DNA from: Alphaproteobacteria bacterium
GTDB taxonomy: Bacteria; Pseudomonadota; Alphaproteobacteria; RF32; CAG-239
DNA length: 64,000 nt
Direction: 5' to 3'
Assembly (NCBI GenBank): GCA_045633825.1
Contig: JAZQZB010000039.1
Location: 7,961-71,960 of the forward strand
Both the position numbers and the translations under genes were made by a program. How positions within the stretch are numbered: the first letter of the stretch is position 1; each line of letters begins with the position of its first letter. Under the pieces are notes generated by a model, which saw only the letters and a program-made list of their open reading frames with translations, was not told the DNA's origin and searched no databases. Below are positions 40,737 through 59,520 of the stretch, in pieces.

Positions 40737-41237
40737 ATGCTGATGAAATCAACTATGTTGCCTCAAGTTTTTTATTATCATTTTAGGCCTAATTATGTTT
40801 GGCTTATTTTGACACTTTTGTTGTTGTGGTTTGTGCTTAGTTTGTTATGCAGATTTCCGGCGATTGTTTATTGGTGGGAGTTTTGGGGACTGTTGGGAAG
40901 CGGTATTTATTCACTTGCGTTGTGGTCTTTTAAATATTTAATAAAACATAAAATGGCGGTTATTGATGATAAATATATAAAAATTGATCATTGTAGAGCC
41001 TTGCCATGGAGATTGGTTGCTTGTGCAGAAAAGAAAACAGCAAGATGTTGTTTCAAAAAATTACCGATTATTGTAATTCGTACTAAAAAACCGATAAATT
41101 ATAGTTATAATCTGCTACAAAAGATGTGTTCAAAAATGGATTTTACTGCTTTTTCGATAGCATTATATGCTTTGACACCAAGCGATGTAAAAAAGATTAT
41201 GGAAATAATTTCTCGAAAAACAATTTTGCTTGGATAA
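40737..41237 (+). CDS. Hypothetical membrane protein (two TM helices)
   Basis: ATG at 40737 with ggggaggg RBS; hydrophobic N-terminal half. Confidence 0.55.
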   Translation: MLMKSTMLPQVFYYHFRPNYVWLILTLLLLWFVLSLLCRFPAIVYWWEFWGLLGSGIYSLALWSFKYLIKHKMAVIDDKYIKIDHCRALPWRLVACAEKKTARCCFKKLPIIVIRTKKPINYSYNLLQKMCSKMDFTAFSIALYALTPSDVKKIMEIISRKTILLG

Positions 41238-41312
41238 ACAATAAAATTTTGCTTGACTATAAATATAATTTGTCATATTTACACATAAGTATTGTTTATT
41301 TAGAAACATTAC

Positions 41313-41389: not shown

Positions 41390-41390
41390 A

Positions 41391-41426
41391 TTTAAAAGTC
41401 TTATCAAAATTGATAAGACTTTTTTG
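41391..41426 (+). terminator. Terminator hairpin after the tRNA (aagtcttatcaaaattgataagactttttt)
   Basis: Perfect 10-bp stem plus T-run. Confidence 0.65.
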
Positions 41427-42017
41427 TTTTGATATGGGATGTTCAATTCCAACATCAATTCGTTTATGACTGCCGTCATAACTCATTGTGTTTCATTGCG
41501 TCTCACCGCAAAACTCCGGCCACAGGCAGGTTTTTGCGGTGCCGTCCTCTTTTTTTTATGCATTGATGAGGCCGAGAAAGCTTAAATAGTTGCGGGGTTT
41601 GTGATATTCAATGTTTCTTTCATGATGTGAGCACATAAACCATCGCCAAGCGATTTTTTATTAAAATCATGAAAAATAGATACTTTTGGATTGACCTCGT
41701 CCAAAACAAAAAACGCCTAATTTGAGGGGTTTTCTTACCACCCAACCTCGCACTCCATATCCATGACCAGGTTAAACAGAATTTGGAAACGTATACTTAT
41801 AACTATAAAAATGCTTTAATATTTTTTTATTAGCTTGATTTTAAAAATATAACATCTATATTTTTGAGTGTGCTTGTTGGCGAGCCCGTTCACTCGTGCA
41901 AAGACTTTTGGTCAGCCAATTATTGATAATATAACCTTTTTCAAGATTGTTATCAAACTACAGATTACGAGTGCTTTTTTCTGATAATAACCTTGAAGTA
42001 ATAGAAAGGATTATATT

Positions 42018-42476
42018 ATGACAAATATAGATTTTTTTAAAAAGCAAGCAAAATTACTCTTAAAGGACTGGCAAAATAGAGAGCAAAAGCATTTTGGCTT
42101 TAATGTTAAGGAGCTTTTTCGACTTTATGAGGTAAATGCACATGAACAGCCTACATTAATGAAAGCACAACATCTTCTTGCGCAAGCTTTGGGGCGTAAA
42201 AGTTGGGCTGAGCTGATAAATGATTCAGATGAAAGCTTGGAATATACTAAGAATGCATTCATCGAAAACATAAAAGAAGAAAAAATGCTAGATGCTATGT
42301 GGAATGAAACATTTTCTGAAACTGAAGCGCATTCTGATGAATTTAATGAAGAAGACGGTTATCATGGAATTGTCGAATGCTTACATTGCGGACAAAGGTT
42401 TCCTATTGATAAACCTAATCATTTGCCTAGTTGTGATGGAGAAGATTGGGATTTAGTTCCAATTGAAGAACTGTAA
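42018..42476 (+). CDS. Hypothetical protein (152 aa; CLHCGQRF...SCDGEDW Cys/His cluster)
   Basis: ORF with RBS aaaggat; followed by a terminator-like hairpin at 42483-42524. Confidence 0.5.
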   Translation: MTNIDFFKKQAKLLLKDWQNREQKHFGFNVKELFRLYEVNAHEQPTLMKAQHLLAQALGRKSWAELINDSDESLEYTKNAFIENIKEEKMLDAMWNETFSETEAHSDEFNEEDGYHGIVECLHCGQRFPIDKPNHLPSCDGEDWDLVPIEEL

Positions 42477-42605
42477 TTATTAAGAACGGCCAGACCTTTT
42501 GGGGGTTTGGCTGTTCTATTTTTTATAATCTAAATATTTTATATATTTTACTGGACTTCTTTGTTTTTCCAAGCATTCATTGTATTGTAAACAAAGGAGT
42601 TTATT

Positions 42606-42920
42606 ATGAATACAGTTAAAATCTATTTAGTGCGAAAACCTTCGGATTTTGAAGAAGTAAAAACTTTATGCAAAAAGTATACGCATGAGGCCGAAGAGGT
42701 CTTAATTGAAGAAACTGTCAACCTACCACCAACTTGGTATGAGGAGTTTTGCCAACGCCCATTGGATAACTACATTTTCTTATCCGGTAAAGGCGGTTAT
42801 GATGATACAGGCCACCGCAAAGTAGTTGCTATAAAATGCCTAGGCAAGCCAACGCTTTATGTTGATCCTTCCGGTTCAAGCTACTGCCGATATATGGGAG
42901 TGGAAAATGAAGACCTATAA
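42606..42920 (+). CDS. Hypothetical protein (104 aa)
   Basis: ORF with aaaggag RBS. Confidence 0.5.
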   Translation: MNTVKIYLVRKPSDFEEVKTLCKKYTHEAEEVLIEETVNLPPTWYEEFCQRPLDNYIFLSGKGGYDDTGHRKVVAIKCLGKPTLYVDPSGSSYCRYMGVENEDL

Positions 42921-43176
42921 AGACATTCCACCTAATCACAAAATCAGCATGCCGATGGTTTATAACCACGCAATCAGAGTACTTGATAGACTGGATAGAC
43001 GACTGAGCAGACTTAACACCCCGGCGCTACCAATTAAATATAAATACGAAATCAATCGTCTTGCACATAAACTGGAAAAATGGTCGCTAAATACAAAGCC
43101 ATTGAAAAGGAGTTGGAATATGTCCGATCCAAAATATCAAAAACCTAACTTTACAGATCATATAGTAAATTATTGA
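42907..43176 (+). CDS. Hypothetical basic protein (89 aa)
   Basis: ATG at 42907 with ggag RBS; 14-nt overlap with the upstream gene suggests translational coupling. Confidence 0.4.
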   Translation: MKTYKDIPPNHKISMPMVYNHAIRVLDRLDRRLSRLNTPALPIKYKYEINRLAHKLEKWSLNTKPLKRSWNMSDPKYQKPNFTDHIVNY

Positions 43177-43742
43177 ATTTGTCTTAACGATATATTGTAA
43201 TCGTATGATGTTATAACAATTTTGTTAATTTTAATATATTTATCAAAATCTTTATCTGTGTTTTTTAATTTATCATTTATGGTTTCTTGTAAATTATTTA
43301 AATTAAGGAACCCTGTTTGTTTAGTATCTAAGAAACATTTTGATAATAGTAAGTGCACCTGATTTGACACAAAGAGATATAATGGGTTTATTTGATTATT
43401 AAAATCATTATTTAGTTCATAAATTACTTTAGGGTCTATTATACGAAATTCTACTTGAGTATCAACTACAACGTTATAAGGTACAGTTTTAATATTATTA
43501 CATCCAAAAGAGTGGGCTGTGCTATTAAAAGTTTGACAGCGTATATCAACAATATCAAAAGTTTGAAAAAAAGGACATTTCCAACAAAACCTCTCACTAT
43601 TTTCATAAATTTTAGTCGGTTTTCCACATGTTTTTTTTATAATATTAAAACCTTCATGTCTAAAATATAGTGGCCATATATATTCCAGAATAGTATTCCA
43701 AAATTTTAATATTAATTCCGCAAAACTTAGTGTATTATCCAT
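43170..43742 (-). CDS. Divergent SPFH (band-7/stomatin/prohibitin-like) domain protein
   Basis: …IIKKTCGKPTKIYENSERFCWKCPFFQTFDIVDIRCQTFN…NIKTVPYNVVVDTQVEFRIIDPKVIYELN matches the SPFH core pattern (G..GPG.HF.IPF..V..VD.R....TKDN..V.VDAVV.YRV.DP) with unusual Cys/Trp substitutions. Coordinates follow the ORF track; the printed line labels are offset by 1 here. Confidence 0.55.
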   Translation of the reverse strand: MDNTLSFAELILKFWNTILEYIWPLYFRHEGFNIIKKTCGKPTKIYENSERFCWKCPFFQTFDIVDIRCQTFNSTAHSFGCNNIKTVPYNVVVDTQVEFRIIDPKVIYELNNDFNNQINPLYLFVSNQVHLLLSKCFLDTKQTGFLNLNNLQETINDKLKNTDKDFDKYIKINKIVITSYDYNISLRQIQ

Positions 43743-43770
43743 ATTTTCACCTCTCAACATATTCTTTATC

Positions 43771-44229
43771 TTACAATTTCAAATACTTCAAAAACGCATC
43801 GCAACCTTCAACGATATCCCAATAGGTTTCATCAAAATTGCCGGTGTACCAAGGGTCTTTGATATTGCGAGGTTTGTTTGCAAAATCGAGTAAGCGATGG
43901 ATTTTGTTTTCCGTATCCGGACCGACGAGCGATTGAATGTCCTCAATATTGCTGTCGTCCATCGCCAAAATATAGTCATAATAAGCATAATAGCGCGGAC
44001 GAATGCGGCGGGAATAATGCTCCTCAAACGGCACATGCATGGATTTCAACATCTCGCGCGTGCCATGATGAATGCCGGCATGACACATCTCGTTGTAACT
44101 TTCAGTCGCGGCAGAATCAATTTCAAACTTGTCAGCCAAACCGCGTTCCTCAACCATTTGCTTAAACACAAACTGCGCCATCGGCGATCGACAAATATTC
44201 CCCAGACATACAAACAGAACTTTGATCAT
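43771..44229 (-). CDS. Low-molecular-weight protein tyrosine phosphatase / ArsC-like
   Basis: CLGNICRSP P-loop (CX5R) at the N-terminus; start taken at MIKVLFVC…. Confidence 0.85.
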   Translation of the reverse strand: MIKVLFVCLGNICRSPMAQFVFKQMVEERGLADKFEIDSAATESYNEMCHAGIHHGTREMLKSMHVPFEEHYSRRIRPRYYAYYDYILAMDDSNIEDIQSLVGPDTENKIHRLLDFANKPRNIKDPWYTGNFDETYWDIVEGCDAFLKYLKL

Positions 44230-44374
44230 TAAAATACCTAAAAAAATATATGCTCTTCTTATTATATCCATATAAGATAAAAATCAATGATCTTGGAAGA
44301 TTAATTAAAAAGATTGCATTAAAACTTTTTGTTACCTATATATATTATATCGCAATTTAACTGGAACTTAGTTT

Positions 44375-46069
44375 ATGTATACATCAATAAAAATCAATAA
44401 TTACAAATGCTTTGTTGCTGATAATGAACCTCAAGGATTTGATATAATAAAGCCGATAAATGTTATTATTGGCAAAAACAATAGTGGAAAATCAAAACTG
44501 TTGGAAGCTTTAGGAAAAATTATAACTCAAAAGCCAGGAGACCTGACTTTTAATGGAATTTTTACTAGGAACATAGAAATAGATGAATTAGAACGGGCAT
44601 TTGCAAGAAATGGCAATACGGATCCGGCACAATTCTTAACGAGGTGGTCATCTAACTCGAACTCTTGGGAAGAAGTGGGAAAATATTTAATTGGGTCAAC
44701 AGCTATATTTACACTACAAAATCAATCTTATCAGCTCCAGCAAATATATCCAGCACATAGAAATCCATATTGGCGAGAAGATGATGTATTAAATCAAATA
44801 AGACAAAACCTCTCAATTAATCCCTTTGAAAACTACCGATTCCTTCATTTACAGGCAGAAAGGGATATTGTCCAAGAACCAATAAATTATAATGATGATA
44901 TTTCCAAGTCTTGGATTAAATCCAATGCCGAGGGTATTTGTGGACTTATTTCTCGCATGCTAAATGACGAAAGTGGAAATGATAAAGGTTGGAGAGAGTA
45001 TATTGAAAAAGATTTCCTCAACCTTATTAATCTAATTGTTTCACCAGAAATAACGTTTACTAGGATTTATACTAAAACATTTTCTAATCATTATCATGAA
45101 ATATATTTAGAAGAAAAGGATAAAGGTGGAATAAAATTATCTGATTGTGGTAGTGGTCTAAAGACAATTATTGCTACACTGACCCTGTTACATGTCATAC
45201 CTCATTTAACTGGAAATTATAAAAATGTTTTTGCGTTGGAAGAACTTGAAAACAATCTGCACCCAAGCTTAGAGAGGAAATTGTTAAAGCACATTTGGCT
45301 ATATTCTGACAGGTATCACGATGCTATTATCTTTTTAACAACACATTCTAATGTTGCTTTAGATTTGTTTGGAAAAGATTATCGCTCACAAATTGTCCGC
45401 GTATGTAATGATGGACACAAGTCAATCGTGGAAACAGTCATTTCTGATAATGATAAACAAATCTTATTAGATGATCTAGGTGTAAAGGCTAGTGATTTAT
45501 TACAGGCGAACTGCTTAATTTGGGTGGAAGGACCATCTGATAGAATTTATATTAAAAAGTGGTTGGATTTATTCTCCAATTATAAACTTGAAGAAGGATT
45601 ACAATACCAATTTATTTGTTATGGTGGTGCTTTGTTATCGAGTTATACAGCTACTACTCACAATAGAAATCTAATTGATTTGTTAAAAGTGAATAGACAC
45701 TCATATGTTGTCATGGATAGTGATAAAGAGAGTGATGATGCAACATTAAAAAATAGAGTCCAAAGAATATCCAAGGAACTTCCTAATAGTCACTGGATTA
45801 CTGCTGGCAAAGAAATTGAAAATTATTTACCAACAGCAGCTTTAACAGAATACTTTGGTAAAACAATAAATATAAAGAAAAATGCTTCTTTCTCTAATTT
45901 ATACAAGAAAGCAAAAAATGTTAAAACTTTTGATAAGGTTTCTTTTGCCTCTGAGATTACAAAAAATAAAAATTATACAAAAGATAATTTGTGTAAATGC
46001 TTAGATTTAGAGCATAAAATCAATGAACTAATGGAATTCATCAAAAAAAGCAATACATCAAAATGTTAA
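44375..46069 (+). CDS. OLD-family ABC-type ATPase with C-terminal TOPRIM-like nuclease domain
   Basis: Walker A GKNNSGKSKLL, ABC-signature-like LSDCGSGLKT, Walker B FALEELENNLHP, H-loop TTHS; then VEGPSD glutamate and VVMDSDKESDD DxD, a TOPRIM-like pair about 60 aa apart. Confidence 0.7.
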   Translation: MYTSIKINNYKCFVADNEPQGFDIIKPINVIIGKNNSGKSKLLEALGKIITQKPGDLTFNGIFTRNIEIDELERAFARNGNTDPAQFLTRWSSNSNSWEEVGKYLIGSTAIFTLQNQSYQLQQIYPAHRNPYWREDDVLNQIRQNLSINPFENYRFLHLQAERDIVQEPINYNDDISKSWIKSNAEGICGLISRMLNDESGNDKGWREYIEKDFLNLINLIVSPEITFTRIYTKTFSNHYHEIYLEEKDKGGIKLSDCGSGLKTIIATLTLLHVIPHLTGNYKNVFALEELENNLHPSLERKLLKHIWLYSDRYHDAIIFLTTHSNVALDLFGKDYRSQIVRVCNDGHKSIVETVISDNDKQILLDDLGVKASDLLQANCLIWVEGPSDRIYIKKWLDLFSNYKLEEGLQYQFICYGGALLSSYTATTHNRNLIDLLKVNRHSYVVMDSDKESDDATLKNRVQRISKELPNSHWITAGKEIENYLPTAALTEYFGKTINIKKNASFSNLYKKAKNVKTFDKVSFASEITKNKNYTKDNLCKCLDLEHKINELMEFIKKSNTSKC

Positions 46070-46110
46070 AGGAGCAAATTTATATATAAATTGCTTGAGG
46101 AACTGATAAA

Positions 46111-46953
46111 ATGAAACAACAAATTAATGGAAACGATATATTATACTACTTTCTAAAATCAATGTTGGATGTGGAAAAAGAATTAGCACATGATTTTATT
46201 AGAAAGGCAATTATTAATTTAGGAATATGGATGTCGCCTGAATATTATGAGCATTTACCAGTTTTTTCTCCTTTTGTAATAAGAGATGCTAAGTGTCGTG
46301 GAAATAAGCTTAAAAAAATACCAGAACGTTGGGGAGAACCAACTGAAAAAGGCTATTTTAAGGATGATAACTCTATTATTAAGGGATATGTTCGCTCATT
46401 TACTATACATTCTCCTTTTTCATCCTACGATGGTTGCAAAATTGGAAATGCTTATGTCGCTTCGCACGTATGGAGACAGCCTATTGGTTTTTCAACAAAT
46501 GAGGATTTGGCATCAAAAAATCCATGGTTAAATTCATTTATACCTAATTTGGTTTGGTTACCTCAACAATTATCCAAATTAAGTGATCGTGAAGGAGGGT
46601 ATGTACAAACATTTATCCAAAAAGTTTCCTACCAAATATATCATGATATTATAACTGACTCCCCTGTATTAACAAATTCATTATGGAATAAATTACCGGT
46701 GGAAGATATATCTGATACAGAAAAAATTGTTTTATCTGATATCTCATTTTTTAATTACGATGCAAAAGCGCTTGAAAGGCGAAAATCAGTAATTATCAAT
46801 GTTATTAACGCATTACAACAGAGAATATCCGGAAGAAATATTGAAAATAAAGTTGTTTCCGACAGGTATACTGATGGTTTGAATTCTTTATCATCTGCCA
46901 ATTTAATAGATCTTAAAAATGATTTGGAAGACTATATCAGGCAATTATCTTAA
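46111..46953 (+). CDS. Hypothetical protein (280 aa), candidate partner of the OLD-like ATPase
   Basis: 42-nt spacing after the ATPase gene in the same orientation. ASHVW…NPWLN…NLVWLP could be a Cys-less HNH-like (ββα-Me) motif (speculative). Confidence 0.5.
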   Translation: MKQQINGNDILYYFLKSMLDVEKELAHDFIRKAIINLGIWMSPEYYEHLPVFSPFVIRDAKCRGNKLKKIPERWGEPTEKGYFKDDNSIIKGYVRSFTIHSPFSSYDGCKIGNAYVASHVWRQPIGFSTNEDLASKNPWLNSFIPNLVWLPQQLSKLSDREGGYVQTFIQKVSYQIYHDIITDSPVLTNSLWNKLPVEDISDTEKIVLSDISFFNYDAKALERRKSVIINVINALQQRISGRNIENKVVSDRYTDGLNSLSSANLIDLKNDLEDYIRQLS

Positions 46954-48507
46954 ATCCGCTAACTTTATTTGGCGATTTACACTAAATATATTTCTTAATT
47001 CTTCGTGTGTAAAGTTTCTCTCCTGATGTCTCTCAATTAGCTTAATCATGTTGCTAACTGTTATCCCTGATCCAGAAACAGAAGATTCTTCTGCCTCAGC
47101 TCGTATTTGTCTGTCTATAGTATCTATAAAACCGCCAGCAATATATGTGAAAAATCCTATAGGATACTGACAATCGCTATAGTTAGCGATATTTTCAATA
47201 TAATTATGAACCATCCTGTTGTGGTGATCACCTGTAATAGAATATCTGCTGTAGGCCTTATTATCTATTATAGATTGATATCCGTTTTCATCAGAAATAA
47301 GCAATACATCCGGAGCTGATTTAGCTCCTGTTTGACCAAGATGTTGAGCATTATAACCGAAAATATCCTTAAAAATATTAGTCGTTGCAATTTCAAAATC
47401 TGTTGCTTCATCTTTTCCTTTAAAAGCCATTTCATAGTAACCAGATAAAAAACCACCTATAGCCCCATGTGGATATTCTCTATATAGTACATTTTCTACG
47501 AGTGATGCATCTGTTCCTGTATTCTGTGCTATATTCTCAACAATATCCGCATTTATTTTTGATATTGGTTTATGTATTGAATATGCAATAAATGCTTGCC
47601 GAATTCTTTGTATCTCAATAGACCTACTGGAAACCGTACCTGTATTTAACAGATTTCGCGTATCTTTTCGATGCCATGGATCCAAGCCATATCTTCTTTG
47701 AAAAAACTCATGATCATCTGGTCGTATAATAAAAGATGGAGGGTTTGCCAATATAAATCTTACTTCTTCTAGTTTTTCAGGCAACAATACTACTTTTCCA
47801 TCTTCCCTGTATATTAACTGGATATACTCCAACCAATTTGCTATCGTGTTGGCTGTATCTAGTAAATGGCTATATGGGTGCTCTAAATTAACAATACCAG
47901 TTGAAGGAGCGTGTGTATCAATAAAATCCCTAGGTAATGATCTATCTCCATCATTTCTAAATGTTATAATTTTTCTAATAACATCTTCCAAACAATTTTC
48001 TGTATCATCAACACCTTCAGTCATCACAACTTTAGCCATTTCTTCTTCTGTCAAATAACAGATTCTTTCATCAATGAGAAGACGTAATATAAAAATAAAT
48101 GGATGCACGTGAAATCTAGGAGACACCTTTGTTTTAATGCCAAATGGTGATGGAAATTGATATTTTAATACTTGATTTTTAAGCACAGTAACTGGAGATT
48201 TCCCTTCCATAATAGCTTCACCTGCTAAAGTTAGATATGGGATTCCCGTTGATTCCTGAATAAATATTAAGCCAAGACTTGATAACCACGCCTGGTATGT
48301 TCTTCCTCCAGATCCTGAATGGTCTCTTCTCTCACCAATTCTTTTTAAGCCACTCCTTTCAAGTTCTTCTTCAAATTGAATATGAACTGATCTACTACGT
48401 GTCCATTGCGCAGATAATGCAACATTAGAAAAAGCGGCTAATACTTCAGGAATACTATTTAACTTTCTTTTAGGACGAGTAACCCACCAATAATTCAGAA
48501 TTGCCAT
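46945..48507 (-). CDS. Putative Type II restriction endonuclease (PD-(D/E)xK near C-terminus)
   Basis: 520-aa ORF 6 nt downstream of a C5-MTase in an operon; C-terminal APDVLL…SIIDNKAY resembles a PD…(D/E)xK core. Confidence 0.55.
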   Translation of the reverse strand: MAILNYWWVTRPKRKLNSIPEVLAAFSNVALSAQWTRSRSVHIQFEEELERSGLKRIGERRDHSGSGGRTYQAWLSSLGLIFIQESTGIPYLTLAGEAIMEGKSPVTVLKNQVLKYQFPSPFGIKTKVSPRFHVHPFIFILRLLIDERICYLTEEEMAKVVMTEGVDDTENCLEDVIRKIITFRNDGDRSLPRDFIDTHAPSTGIVNLEHPYSHLLDTANTIANWLEYIQLIYREDGKVVLLPEKLEEVRFILANPPSFIIRPDDHEFFQRRYGLDPWHRKDTRNLLNTGTVSSRSIEIQRIRQAFIAYSIHKPISKINADIVENIAQNTGTDASLVENVLYREYPHGAIGGFLSGYYEMAFKGKDEATDFEIATTNIFKDIFGYNAQHLGQTGAKSAPDVLLISDENGYQSIIDNKAYSRYSITGDHHNRMVHNYIENIANYSDCQYPIGFFTYIAGGFIDTIDRQIRAEAEESSVSGSGITVSNMIKLIERHQERNFTHEELRNIFSVNRQIKLADLR

Positions 48508-48513
48508 GACGAA

Positions 48514-49557
48514 CTACTCCTTAATACTTGCCTCAACAGATTCGTAAGGAATTTCGGCAAAAGTTTTTAATATTGCTTCAAATATAATTTTGGCACCTTC
48601 TGCAGGAACCGCCATACCTATTTGTTTTCTTACAGACTCTTTACTTCCCTTAAATAAAAAGTCATCAGGGAAAGTCTGTAATCTAGCTCTTTCTCTATTG
48701 GTCAAAGCTCTATTTTCTTTCCAATGATATACATGTGTACCACCACCGCCTGAACCTGTAATGGTATACGCTGGTTTTTTAGGATCCAACCTTTTATAAA
48801 TTTGGCTGATTTTGGCACCCTTAACTTTTAACTGTAATTCCTTAGGCATGGTTGCTGTAAAAGCATTTTGACCAGGTTTTATATATTTCAATCGTTCAAT
48901 TACTCGAGGAGATTGTTTTGTCTGTTCATTATTGTGTGCATCTTTTGAAATTGGCGGGTTTTCAATAGCTTCCTTACATGTTTTGGTTTTATATAACTTA
49001 GGAGAAGGTACTCTAAATTTGTAAGGCAAGTCATTTCTAATACCTACAATTATCATCCTATGCCTAGCTTGAGGGATGCCGTAATCTTCAAAATGATATA
49101 GATTCGGATAAATTTTATACCCGGCATCAATCATATCCTGTTGTATACGCTTAAATGCAGACCCTTCATTAGCGGACTTAATGCCTCCAACATTTTCAGC
49201 CAAAAACCATTGGGGTTGATATTTTTTTAGTACTAGAATTCCATAGGAATATAATGGCCCAAACTTTCCCTTAAATCCTAGTTGTTCTCCAACTACAGAA
49301 AAGTCATTACAAGGAAAACCAAAAGCTAGAGCATCTATTGCACCTAACTTTCCAATATCAAGTGTATGGACATCCTCACAATACACACTTTTAGGAGCAT
49401 TTGGACATATGTTATGAGTATAAGTTTCACATGTATCCCTATCGTAATCATTTGCCCATGCATGCTCTATCTTCATGCCAGGAACATCAGCATTCATAGC
49501 ACCCCATGCCAGGCCCCCAGGCCCACAAAACAATTCTCCAAGTTTAAACTTTTTCAT
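48514..49557 (-). CDS. DNA (cytosine-5)-methyltransferase
   Basis: Motif I FCGPGG, motif IV PCNDFS, motif VI ENV, motif VIII QARHRMIIVG; start taken at MKKFKLGELF. Confidence 0.9.
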   Translation of the reverse strand: MKKFKLGELFCGPGGLAWGAMNADVPGMKIEHAWANDYDRDTCETYTHNICPNAPKSVYCEDVHTLDIGKLGAIDALAFGFPCNDFSVVGEQLGFKGKFGPLYSYGILVLKKYQPQWFLAENVGGIKSANEGSAFKRIQQDMIDAGYKIYPNLYHFEDYGIPQARHRMIIVGIRNDLPYKFRVPSPKLYKTKTCKEAIENPPISKDAHNNEQTKQSPRVIERLKYIKPGQNAFTATMPKELQLKVKGAKISQIYKRLDPKKPAYTITGSGGGGTHVYHWKENRALTNRERARLQTFPDDFLFKGSKESVRKQIGMAVPAEGAKIIFEAILKTFAEIPYESVEASIKE

Positions 49558-49799
49558 TATCAATCTCTTCAAAATCTCTCTTAGTAAGGAGTATAAAATC
49601 AAAAGGTAAAGAATCAACTAAATTATTATAATTAAAATTTTCATAATATGTCTTTTAAAGAAAACGTTGATCTTAAGGTGCATATCGGCAAGAATATATT
49701 GTTTAAGAAACTTGTATTTTAAATAAAGTGTTGCAAAAAAAATAAGGTGAAAGTATTGTTTTGTAAAATATATTAAGAATTTTCAAAAGGACTTGGACT

Positions 49800-51821: not shown

Positions 51822-53737
51822 CATCTCAGGATGATTTGAGAATCTACGACGATAACAATAATTTTCGAATTTTTGCTGGCCCAGGTGCAGGAAAGACACA
51901 TTTAGTTATTGAAAATATTAAATTCATTATAAAAAACAGTAAAAAGTTAAAATTCAACAATCAACGAAAAATTTTGTGCATCACCTATACGAATGCGGCG
52001 GTTGATGAAATCACTAGAAGGTTAGGGCCTTTTTCAAAATTTGTTGTAGTATCAACTATTCACTCTTTTATAAATGATTATATTATATGTCCTTTTCAAA
52101 AACAGTTGAAACTACAAATTCAAAAAGAATTTAACATTAACATTCCTAAAAAAAATAAATTATCCTCTGTTCAAGAAGGTTTTACCGTATTAAGCGGACA
52201 TAAAAAAGAAGATATCTATGGTTGGATTAAAAAGAAATACCCGGAAATTGATGAGAAAATGTATTCTGATATATCAAGAATGAAAATGACTAATATTTCT
52301 ATTGATATAAGTGATATTAATAAATATCCTTTCAATGAAAACGCAAAGGCATGTATAAAACAAATAAACAACAATCAAAATATTTCTAATATTATTAAAG
52401 AGTATATTTGGTCTGTTGCTAACAAATTATCATTTGACGAAATTTTGTATTTTGGATTTGATTTATTAAAAAATTATCCTATTGTATCTTACATATTAAG
52501 AGCAGAATTTCCCTATGTCTTACTTGATGAATATCAAGACACAAATCCTATTCAAAATAAAATTATCAGCATGATGTCTGAAAAAGAGTGCTCAATTATG
52601 GTTGTCGGAGACATTGCTCAATCAATTTATTCTTTTCAAGGTGCAAAATATCAAGAATTTCAAAATTTTTGTATAGCATCTCCTCTGGACACAATAACCA
52701 AAGCAATAGAAGATAATCGTAGGTGTAATAAAAACATAATTAATTTATTAAATTTTCTAAGACAGACAGATACAGCTTTCCAACAAAAATGCATACAAAA
52801 CAAAAATACTGATAAAGTCACTTTTATTATTCAAAAAAATAAGACTATGCATAAATCCATATATGAAATTATTCCGAATAATACGCAAATATTATGTCGT
52901 AAATGGACTGAGGCGTTTAATTATATTTCAGATGTTTCTGATGAACAGAAAAAATTAATAAATTCAATTTATAATGCCTATACATATTCTGTTAATAAAG
53001 ATTTATCAAAAGAAATAGAACTAAGAAAGGATTTATGGATAGACTCCGCCTTAGATATAGCTACTTTGCAAGAAGCTTATGAAAAGAAAAATCTTCCAAA
53101 AGCATTGAATATATTTGAAAAATATCTTGATATTAAAGATTTATTCAAGAATTTTGATGCAAGTAAAATGGCAAGCTTAAAAGATATTACAAATTTATGG
53201 AAAGATATTTTTTCTAGTAATATTGAAAATTGTACCTTAAAAAATTTAATTAAGGATATAAATGTTCGTCTTGATCAATTACAGAATATAAATATATTAA
53301 AGAAATTTGAATATCCACAATCCCCTGATGACGAAGGTTATTTTGATGAAATTTATAAACATATTAACTATATAACGTATTCTTGTGCAAAAAAAATTGT
53401 ATTAGATTTGTTTTCGCCATCATCAAAGCATATGACGATACATAAAGCAAAGGGAAAAGAATTTGATAATGTTCTAGTTAACTTAGAACCTTTTTCTCGC
53501 GGCGAAGAAAAAACTATAGCCCCATCAAATGTTTTCATTTGCCCTCAAATTATTGGAGATAATTGTTATAATGAATATACAAGAATAGCATATGTTGGTT
53601 GTAGCAGAGCCAGAAATAAACTCTATATTCATTTAAAGGGAGATGAACAAACTGAAGACGCAATTAGAAAAGCTTTAAATAATTATTACAGTAATAATCC
53701 AGAGAAACAAAATTTCTTTGATTTTATTTATTTTTAA
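51809..53737 (+). CDS. gajB: Gabija GajB-like UvrD/PcrA-family helicase
   Basis: SF1 motifs: I AGPGAGKT, Ia ITYTNAA, II LDEYQDT, III GDIAQSIYSFQGA, V/VI IHKAKGKEFD, YVGCSRARNKLY. Confidence 0.75.
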   Translation: MDKITSQDDLRIYDDNNNFRIFAGPGAGKTHLVIENIKFIIKNSKKLKFNNQRKILCITYTNAAVDEITRRLGPFSKFVVVSTIHSFINDYIICPFQKQLKLQIQKEFNINIPKKNKLSSVQEGFTVLSGHKKEDIYGWIKKKYPEIDEKMYSDISRMKMTNISIDISDINKYPFNENAKACIKQINNNQNISNIIKEYIWSVANKLSFDEILYFGFDLLKNYPIVSYILRAEFPYVLLDEYQDTNPIQNKIISMMSEKECSIMVVGDIAQSIYSFQGAKYQEFQNFCIASPLDTITKAIEDNRRCNKNIINLLNFLRQTDTAFQQKCIQNKNTDKVTFIIQKNKTMHKSIYEIIPNNTQILCRKWTEAFNYISDVSDEQKKLINSIYNAYTYSVNKDLSKEIELRKDLWIDSALDIATLQEAYEKKNLPKALNIFEKYLDIKDLFKNFDASKMASLKDITNLWKDIFSSNIENCTLKNLIKDINVRLDQLQNINILKKFEYPQSPDDEGYFDEIYKHINYITYSCAKKIVLDLFSPSSKHMTIHKAKGKEFDNVLVNLEPFSRGEEKTIAPSNVFICPQIIGDNCYNEYTRIAYVGCSRARNKLYIHLKGDEQTEDAIRKALNNYYSNNPEKQNFFDFIYF

Positions 53738-53906
53738 TATTTGAAGTAATTTTAATCACTTATTATGTTTTTATGTAAAGCATTCGAAATCTTAAGTCTG
53801 TGCATTTTTTTGCACTATTTATTGCAAATTTTGCAACAACTAAATGATTTTTTAAGGTTTGCATTGTTTTTTTACATCTCATTGATTTTTCAAAATATTT
53901 AATCCA

Positions 53907-53977
53907 AATTTGGTCATTTGTGACTTTTCCATTTGGCAAATTGTGGAGTTTTCATTTGGTCATTTGTGGAATTTTTT
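53907..53977. repeat. Iteron-like array A: three tandem ~22-bp units (catttggtcatttgtggaatttt consensus)
   Basis: Seen directly; units tttggtcatttgtgactttt / ccatttggcaaattgtggagtttt / catttggtcatttgtggaatttttt. Confidence 0.7.
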
Positions 53978-54486
53978 CAAATTTCCTTGCTCAAAATATC
54001 CTGGCTTTTGGTAAGCATTTTGCGGATGTATTCATCTAAGATTGCAGAGGTTTGGTATTCATCGGTTCCGAGTTCAGCGGCAATTAAAGCCCCATATCGC
54101 ACTGGGAAACTCATAAAAAAATCTCTCAATGCTCGGCCGAGATTAAAGGAATAATTACCGGCACGTTTGCGGTCAACCATCTCGCCGGTTAGCATCTTGA
54201 GTTTGGCTTTGGCCAGCATTGCTCGGTAATAAATGTCCGCCGTTTTGGCCTGCTGAAACGTTCCCATATTGCTCATCTTGATACCACCCTGCGCCTCAAA
54301 CAGCGGGTCCGGTTTGCGTTGCTGTGCCGGATCGGTATTCATAAACCACTCTCGGTTTGCCTCATCAACATCAATTTTATTGTTTGCAGTTTTATGAATA
54401 CGCCCGGACTTTATCGCCGTCTGCACCGCATTCAGGTTCACCCCATGAATACGTGCATATTCTCGCATTGATACTAATTTTCCCAT
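53977..54486 (-). CDS. HTH DNA-binding protein resembling phage terminase small subunit (TerS-like)
   Basis: N-terminal MREYARIHGVNLNAVQTAIKSGRI HTH, as in Nu1/TerS-like proteins; GC-richer than surroundings by eye. Confidence 0.45.
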   Translation of the reverse strand: MGKLVSMREYARIHGVNLNAVQTAIKSGRIHKTANNKIDVDEANREWFMNTDPAQQRKPDPLFEAQGGIKMSNMGTFQQAKTADIYYRAMLAKAKLKMLTGEMVDRKRAGNYSFNLGRALRDFFMSFPVRYGALIAAELGTDEYQTSAILDEYIRKMLTKSQDILSKEI

Positions 54487-54508
54487 TAGATTTTCCTTTC
54501 AAAACACC

Positions 54509-54542
54509 AAGTGACCAGCCCGATTTCAAAAGTGACCAGCCC
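54509..54542. promoter_or_regulatory. Two 13-bp direct repeats aagtgaccagccc (54509-54521, 54530-54542) in the promoter region of the TerS-like gene
   Basis: Seen directly; 8-bp spacer. Confidence 0.5.
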
Positions 54543-54640
54543 CCAATTTTTGAAAATCATATAACTATTTGATATTAAAAGATTTATTAAATATACCCGA
54601 CCAGCCGGAAATTTTCTGTTCAGCTAGCGAAACGGCGCGG

Positions 54641-54683
54641 CTTGCGTCCCCGCATACGAAAAATTGCTAGGAAGGACCCGCAA
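54641..54683. repeat. Direct repeat copy 1 (gcgtccccgcatacgaaaaattgctaggaaggacccgc)
   Basis: About 85% identical to 56591-56627; the two copies flank the GHKL ATPase gene. Confidence 0.65.
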
Positions 54684-54781
54684 TCCACTAAATGTTTATA
54701 TCCTATATTCAGAATAAGAATATAATTGACGATTATTCTGCTATGAATCTTTTGTAATCTTATTGATTATTTTGTAATTTA

Positions 54782-56458
54782 TTAACTTGAAATATTCTTG
54801 TCAGATGTCCTTGGGCGAAATTCTAATTTTAATTTATCTTTTATAAAATCTTTTAATACAATGATTTCTATTTTTCGTGCTTTAGAAGAATTGTCTAAGA
54901 AATATCTTCTAATCCCATTATCCTTCGCAATTGATAATTTACGTTCTTCTTTACATAAATCCTGTACGGTATCATCATTTTTTAATTTAATATCCCAACA
55001 TACAATAGTATGCACATTGTCGAAGCAGTGATTAAACTTACCAGATAAAATATATTTAAATTCAACATAAAATATTTTACTATCCGAAAGCGCTGTGTCA
55101 TTCTTTGATTTAACAAGAACGTCTATACCTTCGTGTGTATCATAATCAACGATGCTAAAATTAAATAATTTAGGTTCTAGCATATCTAATAACATAAATA
55201 AAGAAAAAACACCATTTTCTTGTCTTGGTTCAATTAGCTCATGTCCCTTATAAACACAAGTATTTGCCTTATTTACTTGGTCAATACGATATTTATAGTC
55301 CCTTTTTTCTTTTTCCATTGTTCTATAACCATCAGCTTCTTCTGAAAGCCAATCTAAAAAACGCCAATCATCACCTTCTAAAATACTATCAAATATTTTT
55401 TTTACTTCACTTCTAATATCTTCTAAAATTTCTTGAGGTGTATTTTCCGTTGACCCTCTATTGGCTGTTAGTTTTAATCCTTGACAATTAAAGAAAGCAT
55501 GAAAACGAGTATATTCACTACCTTTGATTGCTATCCATTCATTTTTGCGTTGTATAGGGATAAAGTCTTTGCAAAGCCATAATCCGTATCTTTCTTGAAC
55601 AGTATAGGAACCCGTTGGCGCGACATAGCCGGCATGTCGTATCATTTTATTATAGTCAGTTTTTACTTTATTTCCTTCAATCATAAAGATTGCTTGATAT
55701 GATAATTCTGGTGAATTTTTTAAATGTCCTTGTTTAATAATTTTTTTACAATACCTATTAGGAGCATCTACGGTAAAGTCATCAAATAGTTTATTAATGT
55801 TGGATGTTTCTTGTGGAAAAATATGCCCAAATACTAGTTCTTCCGGCTTACAAACATTTAGTCCCTTTAATTTTAATTTAACATTTTCATATGTCTTAAT
55901 GTTAAACTCTTTTTCTGGAGAACCAAATTTTGTAAACCAATAAATATAATCTTTAAGGATTTCTTGGGTAAAACGATCGCGATGATTATTATTGTATCCT
56001 AAAACAGTAATTTTTGTTCCTTGAAAATTTGGATCAATTTCTTGAATTTCAACTCCTGGAATTTCTCTATTAGATAATTTTGTATATGGATCGTTCATCT
56101 CAGCTGAATAAGCTTTACCATCTTTGCATGTTTCAACTTTAACATTGGTACTATTAAAGTAAACTTTCGTTCCATGTCCCTTTTCTCCTATATTTTCCTG
56201 ATCTCTTTTTGTAGAGTCTCCTAAATTAAAGAAACTATGAAGTTCATCGATATTCATGCCTAGACCATCATCAGTCAGCGTAATTTGAAGTAATTGTCTT
56301 CCAGATATTTTTACCATATCAAATAAAATTTCAATATTTTGAGCATTAGCGTCAAAAGAATTACTAATTGCCTCACGAACAATTTCCAATGGGTTAGAAA
56401 AGTCATTTGCTATTTCTATAAACTCTTGTGTTGCTTCAACTTTAGGTAAATATTGCAT
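54782..56458 (-). CDS. GHKL-family (HATPase_c-like) ATPase, standalone 558-aa protein
   Basis: Bergerat fold motifs: N-box EAISNSFDANA, G1 DDGLGM, G2 GEKGHGTK. Confidence 0.7.
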   Translation of the reverse strand: MQYLPKVEATQEFIEIANDFSNPLEIVREAISNSFDANAQNIEILFDMVKISGRQLLQITLTDDGLGMNIDELHSFFNLGDSTKRDQENIGEKGHGTKVYFNSTNVKVETCKDGKAYSAEMNDPYTKLSNREIPGVEIQEIDPNFQGTKITVLGYNNNHRDRFTQEILKDYIYWFTKFGSPEKEFNIKTYENVKLKLKGLNVCKPEELVFGHIFPQETSNINKLFDDFTVDAPNRYCKKIIKQGHLKNSPELSYQAIFMIEGNKVKTDYNKMIRHAGYVAPTGSYTVQERYGLWLCKDFIPIQRKNEWIAIKGSEYTRFHAFFNCQGLKLTANRGSTENTPQEILEDIRSEVKKIFDSILEGDDWRFLDWLSEEADGYRTMEKEKRDYKYRIDQVNKANTCVYKGHELIEPRQENGVFSLFMLLDMLEPKLFNFSIVDYDTHEGIDVLVKSKNDTALSDSKIFYVEFKYILSGKFNHCFDNVHTIVCWDIKLKNDDTVQDLCKEERKLSIAKDNGIRRYFLDNSSKARKIEIIVLKDFIKDKLKLEFRPRTSDKNISS

Positions 56459-56590
56459 TTTGGGCTCCTGTGAACATTATATTGATTATAAAATTTAATA
56501 CATTGTAGGAAACAGTACGATAGAAAACAATAAAAAAATGTAATTAACAACAGTTAACATATACACTATACAATTGTTAATATAACACAA

Positions 56591-56627
56591 ATTAGTTTGC
56601 GGTCCCGCATATGAATTATCGCCAGGA
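56591..56627. repeat. Direct repeat copy 2 (gcggtcccgcatatgaattatcgccaggaaggacccgc)
   Basis: Matches 54641-54683; lies just upstream of the GHKL gene. Confidence 0.65.
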
Positions 56628-56989
56628 AGGACCCGCTGGTACCTTTACCCCCTAAAAAGGACTGGGCCTCTATACAAAACCGGCGGTTATGGTCATGTTA
56701 GTATCATACTATCCTTAATTCTAGAAACCACCGCTCATTTTGTATTGAGAATAGGGCAGATTTGTTTATTAGCTCCTTTACAAATATTCGCCGGTTTTGT
56801 GGGTATGGCACAGGGCAAAATGCCGGCTTCGTTTTTCTTGTATAAGCAAGAGCGTTTGGCCACATCTTTGGAGGCTCTGATTTCGGCAACCTTATCAAAT
56901 GTTTTTTGATCTATAATGGCCGGGTGTTGCCCGTCATAGAGTTCATTTTTGTGTTTGACTTTGCCAAGATAAATAAGTATTGGTGTTTT

Positions 56990-57105
56990 TTTATTTAATG
57001 GTTTTGCAGAAATTCATTTCATGGTTTTACAATTTATCGTTCGGTAGTTTGAGAGTTTTTCGTTCGGCAGTTTGAGGATTTTATATTCGGTAATTTAAAT
57101 CTTTT
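56990..57105. repeat. Iteron-like array B: five tandem ~22-23-bp units
   Basis: ttatttaatggttttgcagaaa / ttcatttcatggttttacaattta / tcgttcggtagtttgagagttttt / cgttcggcagtttgaggatttta / tattcggtaatttaaatcttttt; a 61-bp block is repeated in array C. Confidence 0.75.
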
Positions 57106-57360
57106 TAATTGTTCTGATTATTTTTGGTAAACTTAATTTCCCATTTATTAAAAATATATAGATTTAATCCGAGAGCTTTTATAACAAGTAATAACTTACC
57201 TGTTTGAGTGGTGTTTTTTCCGTTTTCAACATCACTGATAAATCTACGACCAGTTCCAGATATTCAAGCAAGTTCTTCTTGAGTTACTCCTTGTTGTTTA
57301 CGAATATCTCGTATTAATTTTCCTATATCTTTCATTGTTGTTAAATCTTGGCTATTCATA
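57106..57360 (-). pseudogene. Frameshifted XRE/HigA-like HTH antitoxin gene
   Basis: ATG at 57360 gives MNSQDLTTMKDIGKLIRDIRKQQGVTQEELA then TGA. The -1 frame continues ISGTGRRFISDVENGKNTTQTGKLLLVIKALGLNLYIF…, a canonical XRE HTH split by a frameshift near 57262. Confidence 0.65.
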
Positions 57361-57375
57361 ATAAACCTCTTTTTT

Positions 57376-57446
57376 TGTTACCATTCGGTATCAATAGTGT
57401 ATAAATTTGTGCAGATATCAAGTTTTTGTTACCGAACAGTATCATT
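57376..57446. promoter_or_regulatory. Paired operator-like half-sites (gttaccattcggtatca / gttaccgaacagtatca) upstream of the HTH pseudogene
   Basis: Seen directly; partially inverted cores. Confidence 0.4.
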
Positions 57447-57566
57447 ATTATTATATGGTAAAACAAAGTTTTATGTATCAAAGCAAAATAATTTTTACAA
57501 AAAAAAGAGTATCCTTGCAGGAATACTCTTTTTCAAATTTTAAGGGGTATTTTTTATGAAAGTATT

Positions 57567-57962
57567 TTATGGTAAGCCAAGTTTTTTTAATGCTTTTTCA
57601 AAAACATATTCCAATCCGGCATTTTTTATTTCATCAACATAAATTACGTTTCTTATATATTTTAAATCACATAGAATTATCTCATCAGATTTATCAATAT
57701 AAAAATTTGGTTCATAAATAATATAGCGGCCTGTAAATTTAGATAAAAAATTTAAAATGTTTTTATATTTATTAATATATTGAGCAATTAAAATTATTGC
57801 TTTTTCTCTATCATAGTTTTGAATAACTTCTGTTATATCCTTGGAAGATGTTTGTACTTTAGCTATACGGTGAGCATTTTTAAGTATTTCATTAGCAATA
57901 TTGTAAATATTGTCTGTTTTTTTATTTTCTTTATTGATATCAATCTGATAATTCTCCATCAT
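57567..57962 (-). CDS. Hypothetical protein (131 aa)
   Basis: ORF 14 nt downstream of the AAA ATPase gene on the same strand. Confidence 0.5.
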   Translation of the reverse strand: MMENYQIDINKENKKTDNIYNIANEILKNAHRIAKVQTSSKDITEVIQNYDREKAIILIAQYINKYKNILNFLSKFTGRYIIYEPNFYIDKSDEIILCDLKYIRNVIYVDEIKNAGLEYVFEKALKKLGLP

Positions 57963-57976
57963 TTATTTAATATCCC

Positions 57977-59260
57977 TTAATCCTTTAGTGAACCAATAGG
58001 AACTATTAAAACACCATCTTTACGACGATAAGCATAATTACCTACACCGATTAAAACCATTTTGAATGATGGAGCTTTCATTTTTGTTGTATCAATATTG
58101 GCTTCCAGCTTATTTAATGTTGTCGCCCCTTCTTCAATAAGTCTGTCACCGCCGAGTTTGATTTCAATTAATCCATAAGAGCCATTACGTAAATGAACAA
58201 CAGCATCACACTCTAAATCATTTCTATCTCTATAGTGATATACCTGTCCATCTAAAGCATCTGCATAAATACGTAAATCTCTGATACATAAGTTTTCAAA
58301 CATCAATCCCATTGTTTGGAGGTCATTTATTAAATCTTTTGCCCCAAGACCTAATGCAGCAGTTCCGATAGAAGGGTCAGTAAAGTAACGAGTATCAGAA
58401 GCCCTGATTGCTGTTTTGGAACGTAAATTAGGATTCCAAGCTAAAGAATCCTCAATAACAAAAATCTTCTTTAATGCTGATATATATGAGCTGATAGTTA
58501 CATTTTTGTTTGTTAAATCTTCAGTACCCTCATTAGCATAAACATCTTGTGTTATTGATGATATTTTTGCTTGCGAAGCAATAGAGCGTGCATATGAACG
58601 CAATATACGTTTAGTTTTTTCAGCATCCCTTTTAACGTTATCAATTCGTGAAATATCATCATTGACCACAGCATCAAAGTAGTTAATTGCCAATTGTAAA
58701 GCAACATCAGTATTTGTTCCAATGGATTTAGGCCATCCACCGCGACAAATTAAAAAAGCAATTTGTTCTAAGTCTAAACTATTGGTTCCTGTAACTTTCT
58801 CATTGTCAGAGAATAAATCGGCCAAAGAAACGCTACCATTACTTTCGCCTGATTCATATAAACTCATTGGACGCATTAACATGCGAGAAATTCTTCCGGT
58901 ACCACTATGTGATATTTCTGATAAATCAGCAGGAACAGCAGAACCTGTTAATACAAATTGACCAAATTCATCACGTTTATCAACCTCAAAACGTATGGCA
59001 TCCCAAAGTTTTGGAGCTAATTGCCATTCGTCAATTAATCTTGGAGTTTCACCATTTAACAGAAATGATGGATCCATATCTGCCATTTCTATGTTTTGCT
59101 TTTTTTGTGCGGGATCTTGCATAAGTAATATACTTTTAGCAATCTGGCTTGCTGTTGTTGTTTTACCGCACCATTTAGCACCTTCAATTAACACGGCACC
59201 GGAACTGGCTAATTTTTTCTGTAAAATACTATCTGCTAATCTTGTTTTATATTCTTTCAT
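57977..59260 (-). CDS. AAA+ ATPase of the AAA_14/DUF4143 family (COG1373-like)
   Basis: Walker A GAKWCGKTT near the N-terminus, Walker B-like FVLTGS, about 427 aa as for DUF4143 ATPases. Confidence 0.65.
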   Translation of the reverse strand: MKEYKTRLADSILQKKLASSGAVLIEGAKWCGKTTTASQIAKSILLMQDPAQKKQNIEMADMDPSFLLNGETPRLIDEWQLAPKLWDAIRFEVDKRDEFGQFVLTGSAVPADLSEISHSGTGRISRMLMRPMSLYESGESNGSVSLADLFSDNEKVTGTNSLDLEQIAFLICRGGWPKSIGTNTDVALQLAINYFDAVVNDDISRIDNVKRDAEKTKRILRSYARSIASQAKISSITQDVYANEGTEDLTNKNVTISSYISALKKIFVIEDSLAWNPNLRSKTAIRASDTRYFTDPSIGTAALGLGAKDLINDLQTMGLMFENLCIRDLRIYADALDGQVYHYRDRNDLECDAVVHLRNGSYGLIEIKLGGDRLIEEGATTLNKLEANIDTTKMKAPSFKMVLIGVGNYAYRRKDGVLIVPIGSLKD

Positions 59261-59304
59261 GTTGAAACTCCTTGGTAATATCTATTAATATAAACTATAT
59301 TTTA

Positions 59305-59413
59305 TTATTTTGCAAGTTTTCATTTCATGTTTTTGCAATTTTTCATTTAATGGTTTTGCAGAAATTCATTTTATGTTTTTGCAATTTATCGTTCGGCAGT
59401 TTGAGAGTTTTTT
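59305..59413. repeat. Iteron-like array C: four to five tandem ~22-bp units (catttcatgtttttgcaattttt etc.)
   Basis: Seen directly; the block 59352-59412 is about 93% identical to 56999-57060. Confidence 0.75.
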
Positions 59414-59520
59414 GTAATTAAAGTAAGATTGAGATAACGCTTGATTTTTTGAATAAAATTCACTTTAATTATAAAACACCTATCAATTATTATTAGGACT
59501 TAATTAAAACGGAGTGGACT

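Follow-up and report, generated by a model that had tools for sequence, protein, structure and literature searches.

Is the cluster of putative defence genes that lies between a tRNA gene and pepP in the alphaproteobacterial contig JAZQZB010000039.1 a single mobile island, or is it the outcome of several insertions into the same place? The question concerns about 41390-61272 of a 64,000-nt stretch of this contig (hereafter, the window, to which coordinates refer unless another contig is named), most of which a first-pass annotation, made from the nucleotide sequence alone, described as an island of ~18 kb inserted 3' of a tRNA gene with a CAU anticodon and ending where housekeeping genes, given as cdr, pepP and prmA, were thought to resume. 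Profile searches found all the gene families named there in the places assigned to them and, together with a comparison with related contigs and loci (designated here by L-numbers), bear out an accessory, strain-variable defence block behind the tRNA. The single insertion ending at cdr, on the other hand, has to give way to nested insertions, namely a 15.2-kb block, a 4.3-kb Gabija cassette, and repeat-flanked modules encoding GHKL and DUF4143 ATPases. The interpretation that we favour, and to which we would assign a probability of about 0.7, is that the stretch from this tRNA, tRNA(CAT), to pepP represents a hypervariable integration hot spot occupied by a decayed, mosaic defence island with a phage-related serine-recombinase backbone. 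As islands go, this one is unremarkable and belongs to a familiar type, and the concepts of defence islands are unchanged by it; what the locus documents is the pile-up and decay of immunity genes in an uncultured gut alphaproteobacterial lineage, with empty sites defined to the base pair for the Gabija cassette and for the 15-kb block.

Nested insertions between the tRNA and pepP

The succession of insertions can be read from the places at which relatives lack parts of the block. In five contigs of another species with a 97%-identical cdr (L083, L085, L086, L088 and L090), the gene for a low-molecular-weight protein tyrosine phosphatase (LMW-PTP) lies 190 nt upstream of cdr; only 85 nt of these L083-type contigs are without a window counterpart here, versus 15,185 nt (44230-59414) that the window has in their place, and LMW-PTP forms the left edge of a 15.2-kb insertion relative to these contigs. 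In L094, the pepP of which is 91% identical to that of the window at the amino acid level (90.5% in nucleotides), prmA and pepP are followed by one gene for a 334-aa protein and then by the start of LMW-PTP, so that the spacing between LMW-PTP and pepP is ~1.3 kb there versus 17 kb in the window. A third arrangement is found in L098 and L099, which are collinear with 43822-49629 of the window at 80-83% nucleotide identity; L098 has this defence block with its gene order preserved, and the LMW-PTP, the 564-aa ATPase, the protein o280, the nuclease and the methylase are 74-93% identical to the L098/L099 proteins. It is immediately beyond this collinear stretch that the Gabija cassette sits in the window, at junctions where no target-site duplication was seen. 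L005 has a tRNA(CAT) after rpoD and, 2.6 kb on, a distant cdr (54% aa identity), and L087 has a tRNA, 0.84 kb of remnants and cdr; the downstream side of pepP in relatives is taken by other genes or by contig ends. Thus, the predicted empty sites exist for sub-blocks of 15.2 kb (L083-type contigs), 4.3 kb (L098) and ~17 kb (L094), but not for the whole block: among the relatives, none with the tRNA directly followed by cdr-pepP-prmA was found.

Could the region nevertheless be a single classical island, acquired in one step by the action of a tyrosine integrase on the 3' end of the tRNA gene and bounded by cdr, as the first-pass annotation envisaged? The tRNA at the left edge, the anomalous composition and the accessory gene content would all be expected under this scenario. 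It is, however, largely refuted by the separate empty sites for sub-blocks in different relatives, and is made very improbable also by the GC content of individual genes, which runs from 22% to 46%, by the instability of cdr as a boundary, and by the lack of any tyrosine integrase or remnant thereof. The direct repeat anticipated at the right boundary is not there either: when the window was searched for the tRNA 3' end as a 25-mer (up to 3 mismatches) and as a 15-mer (up to 2), and also for tRNA-Lys-type ends, no copy was detected. Judged against classical tRNA-integrated islands, then, the locus has the tRNA boundary, and it has presence/absence polymorphism for sub-blocks only, but it lacks both the 3'-end repeat and an integrase beside the tRNA, the only candidate being a 53-residue serine-recombinase fragment 15 kb away.

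The heterogeneous composition noted in the first-pass annotation is real, although the shift is mainly toward AT. Against a background of 35.1% GC, the segment 44272-59316 averages 30.8%, and the individual genes include those for the phage terminase small subunit (TerS; 45.7%), LMW-PTP (41.9%), the GHKL ATPase (29.7%), GajA and GajB (26%), the SPFH-like protein (24.9%) and o131 (22.5%), with Gabija as the clearest anomaly. A much GC-richer segment at 53.9-57.0 kb, which had been noted by eye, dissolves for the most part on calculation: 1-kb windows peak at 0.386 and the GHKL gene falls within this span, so that the higher GC content is confined to TerS and to two short elements, at about 54.6 and 56.6-56.9 kb.

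Table 1. Features between the tRNA(CAT) gene and pepP, in window coordinates.
Feature	Position	Strand	Basis or remark
tRNA, CAT anticodon	41313-41389	+	sole tRNA in the window by ARAGORN (which calls it Met) and Rfam
Post-tRNA segment	41390-41770	+	sequence comparison with relatives
o152, zinc-ribbon-like C-terminal region	42018-42476	+	not seen in relatives
o104 and o105, small phage-derived genes	42606-43176	+	homology
SPFH/Band-7-like protein	43170-43760	-	marginal (24.6 bits; threshold 23.6)
LMW-PTP (LMWPc)	43771-44271	-	123 bits
564-aa OLD-like ABC ATPase	44375-46069	+	AAA_21 64.5 bits, AAA_15 52.4 bits
o280	46111-46953	+	no Pfam and no PADLOC match
Nuclease with FokI cleavage domain	46945-48507	-	FokI_cleav_dom 48.8 bits, REase_II 91 bits
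C5 cytosine (m5C) methylase	48514-49617	-	DNA_methylase 251 bits, PADLOC MTase_II 390 bits
Gabija cassette, 4.28 kb	49630-53905	+	precise insertion; 14 nt at the same position in L098/L099
GajA	49800-51821	+	PADLOC 280.6 bits over residues 1-672; Pfam AAA_15 and OLD-like_TOPRIM 47.9 bits
GajB	51809-53737	+	PADLOC 331.9 bits; Pfam UvrD-helicase 134.6 bits
Period-23 array	53908-53975	.	right junction of the Gabija cassette; homologous array at L098 13542-13612
TerS, orphan	53977-54486	-	phrog_57 3e-20; 45.7% GC
D4, copy a	54595-54690	+	GC-rich conserved element
GHKL ATPase (HATPase_c_3, MORC/MutL-like)	54782-56458	-	profile search; D4 copies on both sides
D4, copy b, partial	56597-56650	+	runs into sequence 85-90% identical to L082 5241-5571
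Large serine recombinase fragment, 53 residues	56816-56974	-	94-96% identical to L082/L084; 43% to the 571-aa L098 enzyme
Period-23 block	56987-57090	.	left one of the two direct-repeat copies that bracket the DUF4143 module
XRE-family helix-turn-helix (HTH) gene, frameshifted	57179-57359	-	HTH_3 9e-12 once the halves are joined
o131 (22.5% GC) and AAA_14+DUF4143 ATPase	57567-59260	-	profile searches
Period-23 block	59293-59415	.	upstream of cdr
cdr module (CoA-disulfide reductase plus rhodanese; gene 59521-61116)	59317-61128	+	homology
Species-specific spacer to the pepP stop codon	61129-61272	.	shared with the conspecific L092, not with L094

A probable phage-related backbone and the junction repeats

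So on what kind of element might these modules have been assembled? Rightward of the shared defence block, L098 continues with a tandem array of period 23, a GC-rich element of ~90-105 nt that we denote D4, two small genes, a 571-aa large serine recombinase, a DUF2924 gene and, 1.2 kb beyond the latter, a tRNA-Pro gene, the 3' end of which faces the element. The window follows this order, although some parts have been substituted and others deleted: it has the period-23 array next to Gabija, TerS, D4 copy a, GHKL, the partial D4 copy b, the recombinase fragment and a repeat block, but it has lost DUF2924 as well as the two ends of the recombinase gene. The earlier statement that no integrase is present thus holds for intact enzymes and for tyrosine integrases in the window, but not for this serine-recombinase fragment.

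A link of this backbone to a family of temperate phages is suggested by TerS, which is 67-72% identical to homologues on 19 IMG/VR contigs and also matches terminases of Wolbachia and Rhodobacter phages. Within this contig family, homologues of o104 are found on five contigs, D4 on 14 and the recombinase on several, and six D4-centred loci carry the full DUF2924-recombinase pair; the order recombinase, D4, TerS in the IMG/VR contigs is that of the window once the window is flipped, with a D4-TerS spacing of about 100 nt in the window versus 3.5 kb in the phages. For the o104 protein itself, amino acid identity is 52-57% with members of the IMG/VR phage family, 93% with L083 and 70% with L098. 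A DUF2924 gene with a large serine recombinase directly downstream is also on record for Wolbachia, where it belongs to a rearranged part of phage WO (PMC10299305); unlike phages with this pair, the window retains fragments only (TerS, o104, D4 and the 53 recombinase residues) and no structural genes. We considered two more specific assignments. A prophage of the DUF2924/serine-recombinase family was rejected, given that TerS, D4 and the recombinase fragment are the only collinear, heavily deleted vestiges, with o104 located elsewhere and neither the large terminase subunit nor structural genes present; a phage satellite resembling phage-inducible chromosomal islands was rejected as well, since TerS and the broken HTH gene are present but searches brought up neither a gene for a primase or for replication nor a complete integrase. 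A megablast search of 41390-61128 against plasmids and phages returned no match. That the island is old and degraded, as had been surmised, is borne out by the recombinase fragment, the frameshifted HTH gene, the orphan TerS and the shortened distance between D4 and TerS.

In three independent loci, the DUF2924-recombinase module is found at a distance of 0.5-1.2 kb on the 3' side of a tRNA gene, each time of a different tRNA: ~0.5 kb from a tRNA(CAT) of the window's type in L152 (8928-11514), ~0.6 kb from an initiator tRNA (CAT) in L150 (8142-10824) and 1.2 kb from tRNA-Pro(TGG) in L098 (15543-18942). Serine recombinases do not usually insert near tRNA genes. Strand exchange by the large enzymes of this class takes place at a core of 2 bp, so that integration creates no long repeat; the missing tRNA-end repeat is therefore no argument against an origin of the island through such an enzyme.

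Two kinds of repeats mark the junctions of the modules. The D4 element is conserved over its short length, and beyond it sequences diverge fully between loci, including L082 (5194-5330), L098 (14149-14285) and L112 (4451-4587). A D4 pattern search of IMG/VR returned 12 contigs, all but one of which (11/12) are the contigs with TerS homologues. Bases around the D4 core GGAAGGACC look complementary, with stems that differ between loci; RNAalifold on 14 D4 copies gave no covarying consensus, and Rfam searches of D4, permissive settings included, matched no RNA family. The period-23 arrays, with two related motifs, occur only at island module junctions among the loci scanned (about 0.78 Mb), elsewhere at L082 8201, L084 9797, L087 897 and L098/99 13542; a search for the period-23 16-mer in IMG/VR gave 14 single matches, which by a rough estimate is about the chance expectation. 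In the window, the HTH/o131/DUF4143 module is bracketed by a 77-nt direct repeat (56987-57063 versus 59339-59415, 92% identical), and L082 carries an AbiE pair in its place. Upstream of cdr, the break-points of homology with relatives (59317, 59397 and 59415) all fall inside the array 59293-59415.

Arrays of this kind are possibly iteron-like protein-binding sites, or else recombination sites. A bolder, integron-like version of the latter idea would have the arrays and D4 as dedicated sites for the capture and swapping of defence cassettes (Gabija, GHKL, DUF4143 and AbiE) in phage-derived elements with DUF2924 and a serine recombinase, and would add o280 as a nuclease that acts in defence and has a fold not seen before; we regard this combined proposal as a distinctly long shot. 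An integron proper was rejected: there is no tyrosine integrase, and by eye the period-23 and D4 junction repeats have no consistent R''/R' GTTRRRY cores.

Under the favoured scenario of a decayed mosaic island in an integration hot spot, the backbone would have been an element of the L098 type, located 3' of a tRNA gene and equipped with a DUF2924 and large-serine-recombinase module related to a temperate phage family. Its cargo would be LMW-PTP, the OLD-like ATPase, o280 and the type IIS-like restriction-modification pair, to which Gabija, GHKL and HTH/o131/DUF4143 would have been added in the lineage of the window, each at a period-23 or D4 junction. Deletions that removed DUF2924 and most of the recombinase would then have immobilised the island. 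Since only a 53-residue fragment of the recombinase is retained, the island is probably immobile as well as decayed.

The ends of the region

The left end is less easily assigned than the interior. Directly after the CCA of the tRNA, the sequence 41390-41545 is near-identical to that behind a tRNA-Lys(CTT) in L087. It is followed (41545-41770) by a ~230-nt non-coding element with hairpins that is found behind tRNA-Lys in L083 and L090 as well, and that comes again in L086 and L090, this time downstream of cdr and of a degenerate 3' end of a tRNA-Lys gene, with type IV secretion genes beyond. Copies of this element, at L090 1807-2014 and 11735-11903 and at L086 3168-3392, bracket a ~10-kb island of another species. 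Exact scans of IMG/VR with the post-tRNA hairpin and with the ~230-nt element gave no match, and an Rfam search of the island matched only the tRNA.

At the right end, the annotation had housekeeping genes resume with cdr. This is correct for pepP and prmA but not for cdr, the module around which behaves as part of the variable region, so that the edge given at 59520 was misplaced. The module is 96.7% identical in nucleotides to that of another species, compared with 80-92% for the other shared pieces; homology extends no more than 12 nt past the stop codon; and the protein is 75% identical to homologues from Gastranaerophilales versus 54% to the alphaproteobacterial L005. Because of this cross-species identity, the end of homology so close behind the stop codon and the Gastranaerophilales affinity, cdr is not a safe housekeeping boundary, and the module looks like the product of a recent cross-species, possibly cross-phylum, transfer. 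In the other species, it occurs in at least 10 different neighbourhoods, among them type IV secretion genes, serine recombinases, AbiE and a type I restriction-modification system with a TIR protein. By sequence comparison, the right edge of the variable region is the pepP stop at 61273.

These findings raise the possibility that the whole of 41390-61128, including cdr, is one cis-mobilisable element without an integrase of its own, which targets tRNA 3' ends and depends for its movement on an integrase supplied in trans by a conjugative element next to it; the defence genes would have come aboard later as passengers. Cis-mobilisable elements (CIMEs) and the tandem accretion of islands at tRNA genes are well known from the ICESt1 and CIME literature. 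As in those systems, the cdr segment in relatives has tRNA-Lys on one side and, on the other, a degenerate copy of the 3' end of this tRNA, beyond which type IV secretion genes are found; unlike them, the window has neither a second copy resembling an attachment (att) site nor conjugation genes. Several observations speak for mobilisation in trans. The point at which homology to L087 begins is precisely the CCA of the tRNA, even though L087 has a different tRNA, Lys(CTT), here; behind the cdr module, L086, L087 and L090 all have a degenerate repeat of the tRNA-Lys 3' end (TCTTATCCACCACCA, 12/15 matches); the recurrence of the ~230-nt element in L086 and L090 amounts to a tandem-island layout, with type IV secretion genes (VirB9/10/11) just beyond in relatives; and the cdr module is 96.7% identical across species. 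The window itself, however, contains no repeat of either tRNA end, no conjugation genes and no tyrosine integrase; homology ends at 61128, about 100 nt short of the degenerate tRNA end in relatives; and tRNA(CAT) and tRNA-Lys share stretches of only 8-9 nt. On balance, we consider this scenario unlikely, though it deserves to be taken seriously.

A more mundane explanation would be a chimeric join, at the tRNA or at the cdr module, of two species that occur together in the sample. The post-tRNA sequence and the cdr module are indeed most similar to contigs of another species, and contigs of relatives often break here (L001 104 nt after the tRNA, L092 at 61099, L095-97 about 285 nt after pepP). 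Such an artefact is nonetheless hardly credible because the same cdr/pepP junction is present in an independent sample (L092, 99.66% nucleotide identity). Furthermore, the runs common to tRNA(CAT) and tRNA-Lys are too short for a k-mer mis-join, and the other shared segments are 80-92% identical and hence are not reads of the other species.

Against the reading of the region as a decayed island on a serine-recombinase backbone, several points have to be set. Most of the comparisons involve other species (pepP 68-91% identical in amino acids, or unknown), and no conspecific genome with an empty site was found, the only other conspecific contig in the collections ending at 61099. The recombinase remnant abuts cdr, as in L084, and thus lies at the tRNA-distal end, opposite to its place in L098, L150 and L152, which makes the link between tRNA and element indirect. 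Finally, the homology of the left end to sequence behind tRNA-Lys elsewhere would fit a different element that targets tRNA ends equally well. The locus resembles known defence islands and hot spots beside tRNA genes in that several unrelated anti-phage systems lie between core genes in a variable, AT-shifted region with scars of mobile elements. The differences are that the window has no att repeat and no intact integrase, that the serine-type remnant is distal to the tRNA and that the host lineage is little studied.

Predicted defence genes and the flanking sequence

Taken by family membership, the island would provide layered immunity against phages and plasmids, through methylation-guarded cleavage, the nuclease and helicase of Gabija, and three further candidates, each a predicted ATPase or nuclease that stands alone. 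By sequence-level definition, GajA and GajB make up a full-length Gabija system, with genes that overlap by 13 nt and a GajA that matches solved GajA chains in the PDB at E=3e-15. As in Bacillus cereus, the gene for a nuclease composed of an ABC ATPase and a Toprim domain overlaps at its end with one for a UvrD-like helicase, and the PADLOC profiles match over their full length; unlike there, the proteins are only about 29% identical to Bacillus plasmid homologues, and the genes form a 4.3-kb cassette of 26% GC inside another element. Likewise, the nuclease with a FokI cleavage domain and the C5 methylase, which are 87-88% identical to their L098 counterparts, correspond by their domains to a Type II (IIS-like) restriction-modification system.

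The 564-aa protein had been described as an OLD-type nuclease with a partner. Its ABC ATPase part is confirmed, whereas the signal for the Toprim domain remains below the Pfam cut-off (isolated C-terminus versus PF20469, 17.6 against 23.2 bits); profiles and BLASTP nevertheless align the protein to GajA collinearly through the VEG glutamate motif of Toprim. It is 77% identical to the L098 protein and 57% to a stand-alone homologue in L090. The N-terminal ABC ATPase and the GajA alignment through the VEG motif are shared with class 1 stand-alone nucleases of the OLD family; the sub-threshold Toprim match, the lack of a sequence match in the PDB and the non-obligate o280 set it apart. A PARIS system was rejected: the AriA profile matches the ATPase at 66 bits, but there is no separate AriB gene (DUF4435 Toprim), the neighbouring o280 having no PADLOC or Pfam match.

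As for o280, it is by its distribution not an obligate partner of the ATPase, because the ATPase of L090 stands alone and relatives of o280 occur without the ATPase, either alone beside tyrosine integrases (L108/L109) or with a different, 353-aa neighbour. The family is widespread (175 matches) and uncharacterised, with invariant H119, N146 and D159 that are reminiscent of a His-Me finger nuclease; the predicted fold is very confident and has no neighbour among PDB structures. This family, travelling with integrases and defence genes, is one of the leads that the locus offers, together with the intact L098 relative and the two kinds of junction repeats that possibly mark cassette exchange.

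The remaining genes are more loosely placed. The GHKL ATPase has a weak likeness to MORC/MutL N-termini and to the BbrUII/HgiDII family, and its C-terminal stretch GIDVLVK...YVEFKY looks, by eye only, PD-(D/E)xK-like. The AAA_14+DUF4143 protein (57977-59260, minus strand) matches the PADLOC candidate PDC-S01 at 201 bits; a literature search on DUF4143 in defence found nothing useful. The slot of the SPFH-like gene in the window is that of GmrSD in L098.

The host is a low-GC gut alphaproteobacterium. Its closest rpoD sequences come from metagenome-assembled genomes of uncultured gut and rumen Alphaproteobacteria (<=87% amino acid identity), with which synteny extends over 30.3-39.2 kb of the window. 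Housekeeping genes flank the island on the left (folD, miaB, lnt, mnmA, ddl, miaA, mreBC, the gene for PBP2, rodA, dnaG and rpoD) and on the right (pepP and prmA). The species is rare in the collections searched: an identical pepP is present in two contigs (73.7 kb in NCBI and 13.5 kb in Logan), no exact-protein matches were found there for rpoD, cdr, prmA or orf176, and one metagenome scan with cdr returned a single, uninformative contig.

The tRNA(CAT) is retained after rpoD in L001, L002 and L005. It probably is a tRNA-Ile2 that is read through lysidine rather than a tRNA-Met, as suggested by its acceptor stem GGGCCC with C4:G69 and C5:G68, next to G1:C72; it presumably is closer to E. coli ileX than to the elongator tRNA-Met. 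The stretch between rpoD and the tRNA (39220-41237) is variable too, with orf377 on the minus strand, a 69-aa XRE HTH protein (40461-40670) and the membrane-like orf176. L001 lacks orf377 and the HTH-orf176 pair, with a distance of 650 nt from rpoD to the tRNA, and L002 and L005 have other small genes in this place. Just upstream of the tRNA, at 41222-41271, there is a fourth period-23 array, with a different motif.

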